A stretch of DNA of 64,000 nt. Origin: Azolla caroliniana (taxonomy: Eukaryota > Plantae > Polypodiophyta). Positions 26,597-56,409 of this stretch are shown here, in pieces (positions within the stretch are counted from its first letter, which is position 1; every line of letters begins with the position of its first letter). A model generated the notes under the pieces. It worked only from the letters and a program-made list of their open reading frames with translations, was not told where the DNA came from and did not search any database. The DNA lies in the NCBI GenBank assembly GCA_043228905.1, contig JBHGNT010000002.1:15996001-16060000 (forward strand), given 5' to 3'. The translations under genes and the position numbers were made by a program.

Positions 26597-26670
26597 AATA
26601 CCATGGCTTAATGGTAAGCCATTTGACTCCTAACTTGGAGGTGCAAGGTTCGAATCCATACTTGCCCTCC
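26597..26670 (+). promoter_or_regulatory. tRNA-like Pol III A/B-box cassette in C 3' LTR
   Basis: A box TGGCTTAATGG (26604), D-stem GGCTT/AAGCC, B box GGTTCGAATCC (26647). Confidence 0.75.
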
Positions 26671-27295
26671 TTGTATATGTAAATATGTATATATATTTAT
26701 ATATTTATTTTATCTAGTCTTCGGATACCGGTACTACACCGGATGCCATCGCCGGGTACCGGTGCCATCGCCGGATGCCGGATACCACCGCCGGATTGCA
26801 GTCGGATGCCGCCGGATCACCGGCTCCATCGCCGGTCCGGTTTTGGTTGGCCAAAACCCTTTACGAGTAGCTAGCCACCTCCACTCTTAGTTCAAGTTAC
26901 CTTGAACTCTCTATGCTCCACACATAGACACAATGATAATATCTTTTGGTCCACCTTATATATGATGAGAGCCGTATTTGTCGTGCCTATGTGGGATATC
27001 TCACAATTTTCTCTTTTCTTTTCACAAACTTTATACCCTCATATCTTGACATTTAGTTGTACGTTTCTCGTGTAATAAAGTGCATTCGAAACCTCCATCA
27101 TTTTGTACTTAGATATTAAATCTATTTAAAATGTTATCTTCACAGTTATTGTACTACGTGATTCATACTCGATTTCGTACGTTTTATAGGATTTTCACAC
27201 TATTGCCGAAAATCTTCACGACATCCACCCCCACCAAACCGCACGTCCTCCGGTACGTGCCAAGAAGAGAAGAAGTGAGATTTCGGCTACGATGA

Positions 27296-30200
27296 TCAAT
27301 TAGATTCCTCCATGTCTTCATTTTCATCCGGCCTATTATGTTCATCGTCGAGGTAATCGAGGTCAGGATCCTTGTCTTGTCTTTTCTTGAAAAGCTTTAC
27401 TCTTTTTCCCGCAATGGGTACGACCAACCTTGATCCGTCTAGTTCCGCAAGGTGGTATGTGGCATTATCGTTGGCACTTGTCACCACATACGGCCCGAAC
27501 CATCTTCTTGCGAACTTCCTTGTTGTACTATGTTGATTGTCAAGGGTGCTGTCGTAAACCAAAACCCAATCCCCTTCTTCAATCTTCTTGGGACGAAGTC
27601 GATGCGTGTTGTCGAACCGAACTTTGTTCTTTACTCGGGCTGCCTTCATCATCTTTCGCGCTTTTTCTAAATCTTCAGGTCTTCTTTCAAGTTGCCTTAT
27701 CCGCGCCGCTAATAACTCTTCTCGGCTCATCTCGTTCTCCCACGGTATCGCTACCCATGAGGCGATCGTCCTTTCGATGGGCATAATCGGCTTTTGTCCA
27801 TACATAAGCTCCGTCGGCATATACCCTGTCACCGAGCTATGTGTCGTTCTATCGGCCCACAAGGCATAGGGTAATAGTCGTGGCCAATTCTTGACTCGAC
27901 CGTTCATGCCCGTACGATGGCTTTAACGATAGGTCCATGCCCTCGCTCAATCTTCCCATTTGCTTCCGGATTGTAGGCAGTCGTGAGGGAGAGCTTCACG
28001 CCTAGTCTTTCGAAGAGCTCCGTCGCTTCGTGTGCGTCCAACTCCCCTCGGCCGGCCACTATCTTCCCTACACATCCATATCGGCAAACAACATCTTCAA
28101 GTAAAAATTTACAAACGGCTGAAGTCATCTTATTTGTCAAGGCTCGTCCTTCCACTTGATTTGTCAAGTCTTCCCTTGCGAGCGCTAAGTACTTCATTTG
28201 TCCCACTCCCATTGGCATCGAGACCAGATCCACCATCCATTTGAAGTGAATGGTGAGTGGGTATGTCGGCTTTAACTCATCACGATGACGTATATTTGAA
28301 TATATTTGGCAAGTTTCACATGTGGACACGAAATGGAGTACATCTTTGTACATGCTTGGCCACCAGTACCTCTCCTTCAATTTTTCGAACGTCGCCCATG
28401 TCCCTCTATGACCTGCCCAAGCACTCTCGTGGAATTCGGTCATCAGCGTCTCTTGCTCTTCTTTCTTTACCACCACTCGACGTGGTATTCTTGTCCTTCT
28501 TTTTGGATGTCGCCAAAGGAATCCTCCCTTCAAGAAGTATCAATAAGCTTTCTTCCGGATTCGTAGGGCCTCCTCCTTTGTCAATGAAGCATCGGTCGTC
28601 AATGTTCTTAGGAATCTACCGATGAGTAACCACTCTCCTTTGTACTCGTTCTCGTTGAAGGCGTGGAGGGTTTGCATGTCCTGATCTTCCACCGACAATC
28701 GAGCCATCTTGAAGAAGTCGAGGGCGACATCTTCATCTTCCGAAACCATGTTACTTCCATTTGAAAATCTTGCCCTCGACAGCATGTCAGCCATGGCGTT
28801 CTTCTTCCCTGCGATGTGACGGATCTCTGGGTTTAAAGACTTGATGTAGGCGATCCACCTTAGCATAGCAAGATCTGGGGTCGCACATCCCGAGACCATT
28901 CCGAGAATTGGGAGACAATCTGTCTCTATTATCACTTCTGACCCGATCAGGTAATCTTTGTCCGTCTTCACTGCCGACACAATACCCCAAAGTTCCCGCT
29001 TGACTTGGGCATATCTTTGTTGCCGTTCGCTGAGAACCTTTGCTCCGAACCGGACGGCATATCGCGCATTATCTTCACCTTCTTGATTGATGACCCACCC
29101 GATTCCGGTTGGGCTCGTATCTACGGTCACGTAAATTGGTTTCCCTTCGGCATAGTCGGCCTTCCTTAGTGCCGGAGCTTCAAGAAGCAGTTTCTTTAAT
29201 CTTCGCATCGCCTCTGTGTGCTCGTCTCGCCATTCGAACTTTATTCTTTTCTTTAGTAGTCCATATAACGGTTCGGCGACATGAGCGTAGTGAGGAATCC
29301 ATATATGATAAAACGCGCACGCTCCAAGGAACCTTCGAACCTCCGTTTGGTTTTCGCATTCTTCTTTCATGTCTTGGATTGCGTTCACTTTGGATGGCGA
29401 GGGCTTCCGGCCGTATGCTCCACACAAGTGACCTACCACCAAGATCTCCGGTTGCCCGAATGCGGATTTTTCTCCCGAAAATGTCAAATTCGCATCTTCG
29501 AGCCTTTGAAGCACCTTCTCACAATCTTTCATATGATCCGCAACGAACTTTCTACAACCTTCCTTATCTTTCGATTCATCTTTCTCCTCATCCGAACATC
29601 CTTTTATCGGAATATCATCCAAGAATGGCATTGTGATGTCCGGAATGCAATCCTTCAAGACTTTATTCATGGCATTCACCATATGAGCCACCGAGTTCGT
29701 TGCGCCTTGGGGTAAGGTACACATCCGCACAAGCCCGATCGGAGTCCTCATGGTTGTAATGTCTCGACTGTCGATCGCCAACTGGAATTGGTCATATCCG
29801 GAGTAGAGATCGCCAATGGAGTAGATGGACCGGCCCGCAAACGCTTCGGCAAATTCGTCCACGCTCGGACCGATTCCGGCATTTCGAATTGTCACCTTGT
29901 TGACAGGTTGAAGATCTTGGATGAATCGCAATGATCCATTCTTCTTCGGCACCGTGAACCACCTATTGGAATAAGGAGCATTTGACGGTTCTAGAATTCC
30001 CATACTCACCTTCTCCTTTAAGAGCTCAATCAGCTTCGGAAGGTGTGCTCTCGGAACCGGTATCGGTTTCAAATTCCAAGGCACATGAGGCACCGTGAAG
30101 ATCACCATTGGCTCTATAACCTTTGGGTCGGCGCATCCGATTTCTCGTGGGAAGAATGCGAAAGCCTTCCCATGTCTCTCAAGCATATCGCGAAACATTC

Positions 30201-30798
30201 GCTCCTCTTCAGGGAGAAGGAAATCCTCCTTTCCAACTCGTAGCTTCCCCTTCGTCTCTTTGGTGAAGTCATGACCTATCTTCTTCGGATCTCTTAAGCT
30301 TGGATCGTTAGCGACTTCCTTCATCTTTTGCCAGCTATCTTCCGGTAGGAAGATAGCTGGCACCGCAACTGGCTTGATCTTCTTATCCACCGTTTTATAT
30401 TTGGTGTTGATGTCAGCTTCCTTCATCGAGATGCCACGACGGTATTCATCGATGATAGCATACATGTTGACGGAGTTAACTAAAATCACGCGTTGATTGT
30501 GAAGATAGCTCAAGTCCACGACGTCCTCGATTTCGCCGATGGTGTCGTTAAATGAGGCTTCTTCCATAATATGAGTCACGAACTCTCCTTCTTCTATTAT
30601 GTTCTCTTCTTTCAGCATCTTCTCGAATTCTTGTATCCGGCTCTTGTGCTTCTTGTCAGGTAGTACTAGTTTACATGCGCCACTAGGTGTGACACATGTT
30701 GCTTCTCCTTGCAATCCACGCACTCTTCTTTCTTGTGGGGTCTTGTGATCGCTCGGACTATTTGTGCCCCATGCTTCAATAGTCCGCTCTAAAAATCC
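27296..30798 (-). pseudogene. Element C pol (RT, RNase H, IN); one in-frame TGA at 28540 and one frameshift near 27905
   Basis: IQDLQPVN, LPQGATNS, PFLDD, TVDTSPTGIG, GHRG..C..C, NGKIERGH, WFGPY. Confidence 0.93.
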
Positions 30799-54600: not shown

Positions 54601-56070
54601 TGCACTAAGGATTCCTCCTTAATATTGCTAGAAGGATGTACTGATATGGCAAATAGGAACATTGCCTCCTTGTGTCCTTCTTCGCGTAGTTGACGTAATG
54701 AAATGGTCGAAACTCGATGAGTAGATTCATGGGGTTGTCGATATCGGACTTCCCTTGTTCTCCAATCTATGTCTAGATTATGTAGTTCAAACCAAGGTAA
54801 TCCTAGGACAATGGGATGCTCTGGACTACTAATTATATTAAATGATACTACACACACAAAACTACCTAGGAAAACCTGAATGGGTTCTAACTCCTCTACA
54901 ATTTTCCCGGAAGCAATGGGACGACCATCAATGACTACTACAGATGTGGGGCAAGGAAGTTTTCTTAAGGATATCTAAGAAGCTTGGGCAAAATTTCGAT
55001 CCATGAAACAGGAATTGGCTCTGGAATCTAAAAGTGCTAGGACTTGTACTAGGGGAGTACTTTTAGTACTAACCATGAATTGGGCTAGGAACACATTGCT
55101 AATTCGCTTGGGGGGAATGGAACCACTAATGGGCTGTACAGATCGAGGGTTGTCCAACCAAACGGCTCCTATTTTGGCTGGACTCAATCATTTAACTCTT
55201 CATCTAATTGACTAAGGATTTCAAATTTGTTTGAGATACTTGGGCTATTAGTACTATTAATACTATCAGACACTCCTAAGGGAAAAATTGACTCGGGTTT
55301 AGTACAGGCTACAATTTGATTTACCTATCTTCTTGGCCTATGGGGACAATTGATTGCGATAGGCAAAGGCTGGACGATTGCCTTGATGCAATCGTCGAAT
55401 CTTGTTGATCGCCGTCCTGATGTTGTCGGTGTCTCCAAAGCAGGCTTTAAACTCACTAATAAAATCTTCAAAGTTATTAAGCAAGGGTGATTGTTTTTCT
55501 AGAAGCAAAACGAACCATGCTAAGGCTGAGCCGCTAAGCAACGTGCCTATTAGACCGACTCGGGATGCATCAGTGGGGTATCGGGAAGGATGCATTTGGA
55601 TAACTAATCGTACATGATTAAGGAATCCCCTGAATTGTGATCGCGTTCCATCAAATTTCACAGGAAGTCCAATCTTCGGCTCTTTATGAAATCCTTGGGG
55701 ACTTTATCCTTGTTGTTGCAATGCTGCTTCGAGTTGTTGTACCCGTAACACTAACTCCCCATGTTGTTGCTGCGTTTGTTGTTTTTCTAGAGCGATTTGT
55801 TACAGATCCCCTATCAGCCGTTGGTTTTCTTGTTCCAAGGCAACAAAATTTTCTTTAAGGCACTGTAGCTCGGAGAAAACGTATTGATGTTCTTGGGCGC
55901 TAACAGTAGCCATAATATAGGGAAAAGGGTAGGAAGATGAGGGAGAACGACAAATAGGCTGGAGGAAAAAATTGGTTCAAACTATCAGGAATAGTACTAA
56001 AGCAGAGAGGGAATTAGTACTAAAGAAGAGAATTATTATTAGTACTAAGAGGACGGGACTGCGTAAGATT

Positions 56071-56114
<44 letters not shown>

Positions 56115-56332
56115 GATGATAACATCTAATATATTATGTGAAGGATAAGTACAAAATGGCTAAGAGGCTTGAGACTGGTATTAAACCAATTTGGTTCAAC
56201 ATAATGCCTAGTGCCTTCTTTTATAGTGTTCGCAGGAGTAATCCTGAAGCTTCTAGAATGTTCCAGAGAAATCTAGAATATACATTAATTTCCTATAATA
56301 AAACTTAAATGAAAATAATATTTTACATATTA

Positions 56333-56409
56333 CAATAGATGGTATAATGGTCAAGAGCTCGACCCATATAACATAAGGTCATGGGTTCGAGTCTTGCCAT
56401 ATCATGACA
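56333..56409 (+). promoter_or_regulatory. tRNA-like Pol III A/B-box cassette at the U3 end of D 5' LTR
   Basis: A box 56340, B box 56384. Confidence 0.65.

Follow-up and report, generated by a model that had tools for sequence, protein, structure and literature searches.

LTR retrotransposons of two lineages, a chromovirus and Trp-primed elements, carry in the U3 part of their LTRs a short antisense cassette whose sequence supports its identification as a tRNA-derived, type-2 promoter of RNA polymerase III (Pol III). These cassettes lie in a 64,000-nucleotide stretch of Azolla caroliniana DNA (contig JBHGNT010000002.1, positions 15,996,001 to 16,060,000; hereafter the window), and related ones occur in metagenome loci.

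Results

Elements carrying or lacking the cassette

Three elements in the window carry the cassette, all on the minus strand as judged from ORFs, PBS and PPT. Element C (26204..34126) is a Trp-primed Ty3/gypsy element of 7923 bp with gag and pol containing breaks, a 4-bp TSD (CCGG), and LTRs (26204-27223 and 33055-34126) that are 93% alike. Element E (41245..44922), also Trp-primed, measures 3678 bp, has one gag-like ORF and no pol, is flanked by a 4-bp TSD (GCGT), and is inserted in an LTR of element H; its LTRs (41245-42068 and 44135-44922) are 99% alike. The 18-nt PBS of C (33029..33046, minus strand) recurs as the same site in E (44113-44130), and we take it to be that of tRNA-Trp. C, E and F are candidate members of the Phygy clade, and their named protein relatives are from Riccia (48–66% identity). 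Element F (48307..60476, minus strand) is a Trp-primed relative of C with pol 56–67% identical, and its LTRs lack the cassette in the A/B-box scan, as originally predicted, so that it serves as a control. Nested in F is element D (51202..56409), a chromovirus of 5208 bp, inferred to be of the Tcn1 type, with a 5-bp TSD containing 1 mismatch and LTRs (51202-51640 and 55983-56409) that are 95% alike. D encodes a chromodomain (PF00385) with an aromatic cage, has a Tf1/Sushi-like RT and no tRNA PBS, and agrees with the features of Tcn1 chromoviruses as described in PMC6317226, an assignment made by these features. A palindrome near its predicted RNA start (51411..51431) matches the sequence after the 5′ LTR, from which D is inferred to be self-priming. 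At 27% identity in RT-RNase H, D and the Trp-primed, non-chromovirus elements are indeed distinct lineages.

Position and orientation of the cassettes

A and B boxes at tRNA spacing had been noted in both LTRs of C, E and D, and they are present in all six (five exact, one with 1 mismatch). From A box to B box, the cassettes span 26604..26657 (A/B starts 26604/26647) in the 3′ LTR and 33455..33508 (33455/33498) in the 5′ LTR of C, 41866..41919 (41866/41909) and 44756..44809 (44756/44799) in the 3′ and 5′ LTRs of E, and 51571..51625 (51571/51615) and 56340..56394 (56340/56384) in those of D, the first of which stops 15 nt short of the LTR 5′ end. One point needs correction: the A box of the left E LTR reads AAGCATAATGG (T8>A), whereas TAGCATAATGG is found, of the two LTRs of E, in the right one only. 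Because the elements run on the minus strand and all six cassettes on the plus strand, the cassettes are antisense. A scan with what we take to be the consensus patterns of the two boxes gave 5 exact pairs 40–50 nt apart in the window, all on the plus strand and deriving from 3 families only; 300 local dinucleotide shuffles gave 0.003 on average and never more than 1. A B-box-like match at 63981, with an A box of 2 mismatches at 42 nt and outside all LTRs identified in the window, was taken as chance, and the same scan of the window found no cassette in element H or in the copia element A. None of C, D and E is inserted beside a cassette, which lends no support to a role as landing pad for nested insertions.

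In C, E and D, the cassette is located in U3, on the LTR 5′ end side of a putative Pol II TATA box and ∼120–280 nt upstream of it; this box was assigned by motif on the minus strand (C, 26417..26425; D, 51449-51457; E, 44477-44485, non-canonical). Measured from the B box (GGTTC..), the distance is 213–291 nt in the C clade, ∼165 nt in D and ∼320 nt in E. Candidate enhancer motifs occupy the interval. In D, this is a perfect heat-shock-element (HSE) motif, GAAnnTTCnnGAAnnTTC, at 51477..51494 (plus strand), which occurs in the window only there and at 56246-56263. C has a cluster of CATGCA motifs at 26444..26517 and E one at 44532-44617, presumably RY/Sph-like.

Survey of metagenome loci

Metagenome loci were picked by PBS without use of the boxes, giving at least 120 loci (272 kb; 80 of 120 with long flanks), most of them from one series of assemblies. 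Among the matches listed, 6 of the 29 Trp-primed LTRs classed as complete contain the cassette, which is absent from the other 23 and from 15 of 22 families, completeness being defined by a heuristic end motif that probably mis-called the end of L078. At up to 1 mismatch, the 120 listed loci contain antisense matches at 44 nt (10) and 45 nt (2, one being a real tRNA-Phe), and none at any other distance from 40 to 50 nt. All 12 non-tRNA cassettes at 44 or 45 nt sit in LTRs, although LTRs cover no more than 32% of these 272 kb, and among LTRs that are long enough and have TATA-proximal homology to C, 6 of 7 carry a cassette. The predicted antisense orientation holds for C, E and D, but in L068 and L076 a further cassette, in sense orientation, follows downstream of the TATA box, so that two outward-facing cassettes flank it; among the loci listed, such extra sense cassettes are limited to these two and, in decayed form, L062. 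Tandem pairs occur in L062, L068 and L072. Boxes are broken in single copies (L038 at C56, L060 at C61, L062 at G18, L002 and L010). No cassette was found in the viral contigs searched.

Loss of the tRNA and retention of its promoter

No tRNA gene was detected in the window by ARAGORN, nor any tRNA with Rfam at E ≤ 1, with real tRNAs in L022 and L041 scoring 66 and 59 bits as positive controls. As had been proposed, the cassettes have not kept the stems of a tRNA: over 18 of them, acceptor-, D- and anticodon-stem pairing falls within a shifted-register null. The first T4 in these 18 lies 3 to 166 nt past the B box or is absent, and no conserved terminator is apparent. A CAA motif is present at −10..+3 in 9 of the 18, and the 33 nt upstream of the cassettes are 79% AT; for plant tRNA promoters, 72.5% AT has been reported upstream (PMC3082873).

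The boxes themselves are conserved. In 8 C-clade orthologues, a set originally found by box scan, 5 changes fall in the 15 columns of invariant box and positions 44–47 versus 67 in the 44 other columns (p = 2e-5; p = 0.007 for G/C columns only), and 5 of 6 changes at R/Y box positions stay in consensus. Positions 44–47, which were left out of every scan, agree with AGGT in 37 of 40 letters across 10 representatives, where 9.9 would be expected; spacer identity is 0.31 versus 0.26 for random sequence. Yeast TFIIIC touches position 47, and changes at 44–47 alter binding and transcription (PMC11724288). The high-copy D family gives a more mixed picture. Among 40 of 92 variants listed, the two commonest A-box variants fall on degenerate positions, and every variant at 51605-51614 stays below 4%; other D subfamilies read TAGTC-, TAGCC- or TAGCT-TAATGG. 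In D copies of organism A, A-box alleles that break the consensus reach 14% (G10>A) and 6% (A14>G) of depth, and in raw counts the A box varies at 4 of 11 positions and the spacer at 7 of 23, so that the box is not the quieter of the two, counts that leave out the B box as too near the stretch end. Taken together, retention of boxes, spacing and positions 44–47, with spacers near random, stems lost, and no free copies or TSDs (see below), suggests that selection acts on a Pol III promoter at the DNA level.

Origin of the cassettes

Repeated recruitment had been proposed. For C and E this does not stand: a C-clade cassette model matches E (E-value 2e-4) and the intermediate L011 (8e-8), and the two cassettes are therefore homologous, which leaves independent capture plausible in D only. 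The spacers and surrounding LTRs differ as described, but only in part, C and E being 72% identical over 79 nt across the cassette 3′ half and flank. That the cassette is no free SINE is supported, within the 336 kb examined, by the lack of a SINE body or tail and of any free copy in 315 kb. A TSD-like repeat around the cassette was not above chance in 8 of 9 tested, and contig depth across the D cassette, a rough measure, is about that of the remaining LTR. On the gag tree, cassette presence is patchy, with 3 changes and no clustering beyond shuffles; the tree holds 32 of 53 candidate rows, with no cassette status for 20 rows, places L011 on a long branch, and lacks the cassette-bearing L002, L072 and L078, which gave no hit. 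The cassette appears to travel within an exchangeable U3 module, together with enhancer motifs and TATA box, which families swap or lose.

Discussion

We consider the chances even that the cassette is a TFIIIC/TFIIIB barrier, or an edge of open chromatin, next to the element's Pol II promoter. The A/B-box promoter, which sits at the outer border of the U3 enhancer and points outward from the element, would likely bind TFIIIC and TFIIIB, and the bound factors would hold a nucleosome-poor barrier beside the Pol II promoter, with the presumed benefit that this promoter stays inducible wherever a copy lands in silenced, repeat-rich chromatin. According to PMC11724288, TFIIIC binding does not need the A box, whereas placement of TFIIIB does, so that a retained A box implies TFIIIB loading. 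A short RNA would likely be a by-product, since any Pol III transcript from the backward cassette would run outward from the enhancer. In yeast and human, tRNA genes (tDNAs) and TFIIIC sites serve as barriers to heterochromatin (PMC12409998); in the literature searched, we found no report of a TFIIIC barrier in plants. Against a barrier, the cassette is missing from most Trp-primed LTRs, F included, the kept A box equally fits real transcription, and the distance to the TATA box varies among lineages. Methylated, clustered tRNA genes of Arabidopsis are silent although their boxes are present (PMC7544208), and a cassette in a methylated LTR may thus simply be off. More tentatively, and with the odds somewhat against it, LTR elements of two deep lineages may have repurposed a captured tRNA promoter as a portable insulator, in which one or more outward-facing TFIIIC/TFIIIB sites bracket a stress or developmental enhancer and TATA box, so that new copies resist heterochromatin and thousands of Pol III factor sites become scattered in repeats.

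Other readings share much of this evidence. It is unlikely, to our mind, that the product is what matters, i.e. that a short Pol III RNA, which when made from the 3′ LTR would be antisense to U3 in the element's RNA and in D would be a hairpin, tunes or decoys small-RNA silencing or limits copy number. Such a model accounts for the kept A box, which TFIIIB and transcription need, and predicted folds of the D cassette (one long hairpin, z −4.3) and of C (two hairpins, z −3.6) agree with it, as do the common D spacer variants, which sit in the predicted loop (51599, 51600, 51602, 51604) or preserve G-U pairs (51583, 51585). However, E has z −0.3, L027 is the only one of the 15 other cassettes with z < −3 (3 of 18 overall), and no fold shared across cassettes was found; the C-clade hairpin shows no more covariation than shuffles do (221/500), the terminator does not appear conserved, and fold boundaries were picked after the folds had been inspected. 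That TFIIIC/TFIIIB placed back-to-back with the enhancer directly boost Pol II, for instance as a source of TBP or of histone acetylation, we regard as decidedly unlikely. The C-clade B box does lie beside HSE or CATGCA motifs at its 213–291 nt from the TATA box; yet this distance differs in D and E, and tandem and two-sided cassettes suit a boundary better, although sequence alone cannot separate co-activator from barrier.

A very unlikely reading is that of a neutral passenger, with SINE or Helenus remnants fixed in LTRs and copied along. Helenus and Cassandra have been proposed to stem from a SINE insertion (PMC10886601), and the patchy gag-tree distribution and the decayed copies L010 and L002 would fit. 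This reading is largely countered in sequence by boxes and positions 44–47 that persist while spacers are randomised, by the missing SINE body, free copies (in 315 kb) and TSD-like repeats (in 8 of 9 tested), and by the roughly even depth over the D cassette. It is barely conceivable that the element relies on the cassette for its own transcription or priming, a role that has been proposed for Helenus and demonstrated in Cassandra, for all that the same kind of promoter sits in the LTR. The cassette occupies the wrong strand for this; the elements, at 3.7–7.9 kb, have 6–36 runs of four or more T on the sense strand and TATA boxes (by motif) of their own, and C and E possess a full tRNA PBS and D a self-priming match. 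With just 5–7 nt common to cassette and PBS, a self-supplied primer was rejected.

How LTR elements remain inducible in silenced chromatin is an open question, to which a cis-acting Pol III factor site would add a route. The known routes are enhancer motifs or anti-silencing proteins. The cassettes would further permit a direct test of tDNA/TFIIIC barriers in plants, for which natural controls exist in sister families that differ in having the cassette (E and L003, C and F) and in copies that bear one, two or three of them. As D-type LTRs are abundant in at least 4 related organisms, such sites can confuse tRNA or SINE annotation and maps of Pol III occupancy.

Comparison with known systems

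The original prediction of a wholly new system does not hold, because tRNA-type promoters in LTRs have already been described for Helenus (TRIMp3; Kojima 2024), non-coding TRIMs of 311–1263 bp of which PMC10886601 gives one plant family, in Selaginella. As in Helenus, tRNA-derived sequence is found in both LTRs, conservation is focused on boxes A and B, and no functional tRNA remains (PMC10886601). The shared PBS, PPT and 4–5 bp TSD are general to LTR elements and not diagnostic. According to PMC10886601, whose analysis is limited to TRIMs, tRNA-like parts occur in 'not a few LTRs' of Repbase, and autonomous partners are expected to use Pol II promoters. For antisense tRNA-type promoters in coding LTR elements, we found no report in the literature searched; subscription papers, Repbase reports or bioRxiv supplements could hold one.

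Cassandra and Ajax TRIMs likewise keep in their LTRs a Pol III promoter taken from a small-RNA gene. Theirs is a 5S type-1 promoter in non-autonomous elements, and that of Cassandra drives its own RNA, unlike C, E and D (PMC10886601; PMC7215508). Yeast and human tDNA insulators and ETC sites resemble the cassettes in placing B boxes beside Pol II promoters, where they are TFIIIC-bound and act as barriers or enhancer blockers. ETC sites, however, have an extended B box and are without TFIIIB and Pol III, whereas the cassettes keep an A box at tRNA spacing, and both insulators and ETC sites are host loci rather than cargo of a mobile element (PMC12409998). Ty3, DGLT-A and TRE5-A also exploit the TFIIIB/TFIIIC environment, but do so by inserting beside host tRNA genes (PMC5006619), whereas C, E and D carry the promoter in the LTR. 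The tRNA part of Helenus-1_SMo (PMC10886601), the only Helenus family checked, is sense to its PBS, in contrast to the antisense U3 cassettes of C, E and D, which moreover have gag or gag-pol and a TATA box. What is new relative to Helenus is thus an antisense cassette in long, coding elements.

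tRNA-type boxes lie antisense in the LTRs of C, E and D

The window is made up of nested LTR retrotransposons on the minus strand, and its plus strand carries A and B boxes spaced as in a tRNA gene (the cassette) in 6/6 LTRs of elements C (26204..34126), E (41245..44922) and D (51202..56409), as had been predicted. Five of the six cassettes are exact and the remaining one has T8>A, with 0.003 exact A+B pairs expected from shuffles. No cassette was detected in the further elements F, H and A, the first of which had been expected to lack one. In agreement with the predicted U3-side location, every cassette sits on the 5′ side of the TATA motif within the LTR and faces outward, with enhancer-like motifs separating it from the TATA box. 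The cassette cannot transcribe its element, because it has the wrong orientation and because 6–36 T runs occur in the sense direction. The window yielded no tRNA gene calls, and pairing of the acceptor, D and anticodon stems is at the shifted null, consistent with the view that the boxes are not tRNAs; T-stem pairing is 3.4/5 versus at most 3.2 in the shifted null.

A perfect heat-shock element lies between the cassette and the TATA box of D (51477–51509 and 56246–56263; four perfect units, imperfect units beyond), and both occurrences of the motif in the window are in D LTRs. The listed D-family variants within it fall at free positions, and D may be a heat-responsive chromovirus. CATGCA motifs, which are RY/Sph-like, are enriched in cassette-bearing Trp-primed LTRs (9 versus 24 LTRs, p 8e-6 per kb, the sequences being related and not independent), with clusters at 26444–26517 and 44532–44617; control of these LTRs by B3 factors is possible.

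C/E and D are different lineages

C and E have 4-bp target-site duplications (TSDs) and an identical 18-nt primer-binding site (PBS), which we take to be that of tRNA-Trp. D lacks a tRNA PBS, shows a self-priming match and encodes an aromatic-cage chromodomain, features that excerpts of PMC6317226 ascribe to the moss and clubmoss clade Tcn1. With a C–D RT-RNase H identity of 27%, the predicted separation of C/E from D is upheld; the named relatives of C pol are liverwort proteins, which would point to a bryophyte, probably a moss, as host. E, whose LTRs are 99% alike, is young and, without pol, has a single 724-codon gag-like frame (42021–44195, minus strand) whose C-terminal half is basic and repetitive and for which a Pfam search gave no match. 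Immediately downstream of the cassette in its left LTR is a 36-nt tandem duplication (41958–42003), absent from the right LTR. C and E are inserted into the LTR element H (23666–45204), in which no tRNA-type PBS was seen. Non-retroelement frames at 15881–17939 contain triplet repeats of the glutamine/histidine type and match the IQ motif weakly; they are possibly a host gene.

Boxes are conserved and spacers are not

Among C-clade orthologues (n = 8), the 15 invariant-box and 44–47 columns show 5 changes versus 67 in the 44 others (p 2e-5; G/C columns only, p 0.007), and the spacer is near random among 10 representatives (identity 0.31 versus 0.26 for random sequence). In the same representatives, AGGT at variable-loop positions 44–47 (tRNA numbering), which were used in no scan, is retained at 37/40 letters. 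When the D family was compared with contigs of four organisms, common A-box variants among those listed were at degenerate positions, but organism A had two consensus-breaking A-box alleles (14% and 6%). In yeast, as given in excerpts of PMC11724288, TFIIIC binding is influenced by positions 44–47 and does not require the A box; placement of TFIIIB does. The cassette is real and conserved.

Relatives and origin of the cassette

A metagenome scan by PBS, blind to the boxes, returned at least 120 loci, with long flanks for 80. Among the loci listed, antisense pairs with at most one mismatch are confined to two spacings, with ten at 44 nt and two, of which one is a real tRNA, at 45 nt, and there are two sense pairs, at 45 and 49 nt; the non-tRNA matches at 44/45 nt are inside LTRs in 12/12 cases, and a weight matrix places the cassette in 6/29 LTRs with a recognisable 5′ end. 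Tandem cassette pairs occur in L062, L068 and L072. The original prediction that all cassettes are antisense holds for those of C, E and D, but L068 and L076 carry an additional sense copy beyond the TATA box, ∼110 nt downstream, which leaves the promoter bracketed by outward-facing cassettes; in L062 the downstream sense copy is present but decayed.

In L011, two Trp-primed internal domains have a central, cassette-bearing LTR of 539 nt in common, and RT, RNase H and integrase share one 1060-codon frame. A degenerate cassette ∼4.5 kb from the L015 PBS, on the internal side, is followed directly by TGACA, like the D layout, and may mark where a decayed solo LTR ends. L023 (2244–3042, minus strand) contains a ∼370-bp tandem repeat with a decaying tRNA-Met-like gene in each unit. 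tRNA genes occur near PBS-bearing elements in L041 (1151–1223, ∼200 nt from the LTR end), L022 (3046–3118) and L056 (2622–3818, three tRNA calls), and some families possibly target tRNA genes for insertion.

No SINE body was found at the cassettes, TSDs around them were not above chance in 8/9 cases, and no free copy outside LTRs was present in 315 kb. A model built on C-clade cassette sequences detects L011, L078 and E and misses D and L072, which indicates that the C and E cassettes share a single origin and that of D is separate or very old; the repeated recruitment proposed across C, E and D therefore does not extend to C and E. The D cassette may derive from transfer between lineages and not from independent capture. 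On the gag tree the cassette distribution needs three changes, and the sister of E is L003, which has no cassette; the two have their 3′ 240 nt in common and differ in U3. This fits U3 modules swapped or lost among families; the same pattern fits gain or loss.

Possible function

The conservation pattern indicates a DNA code, which TFIIIC reads and TFIIIB loading requires, and not an RNA shape or terminator, neither of which is conserved across the families. For this reason, and because yeast and human tRNA genes and TFIIIC sites act as heterochromatin barriers (excerpts of PMC12409998), we favour, at about even odds, a cassette that would bind TFIIIC and load TFIIIB, the bound factors guarding the element's Pol II promoter as a barrier or open-chromatin edge, to its presumed benefit. 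Counted against this are the lack of a cassette in most families and the silence of methylated tRNA clusters in Arabidopsis (excerpts of PMC7544208). A functional antisense or hairpin RNA, for which D is the best case (z −4.3), ranks below the barrier and seems unlikely given the unconserved shape and terminator. Direct co-activation of the element's Pol II promoter is more doubtful still, and a neutral relic is less probable again, as the boxes and positions 44–47 are kept against a near-random spacer.

Comparison with Helenus

tRNA-type promoters in LTRs are already known from Helenus (PMC10886601). Helenus elements, however, are TRIMs that are short and lack coding capacity, and in the plant family checked their promoter is in sense orientation, whereas C, E and D are coding elements with an antisense one. 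Differing in two defining features, they are not assigned to Helenus, and the cassette's job is probably a different one. No description of antisense tRNA-type boxes in coding LTR elements was found in the literature searched; the arrangement may nevertheless have been seen before, since Kojima notes that further LTRs in Repbase contain tRNA-like parts, without analysing them (PMC10886601). What is new relative to Helenus is an antisense A/B-box cassette in coding LTR elements.
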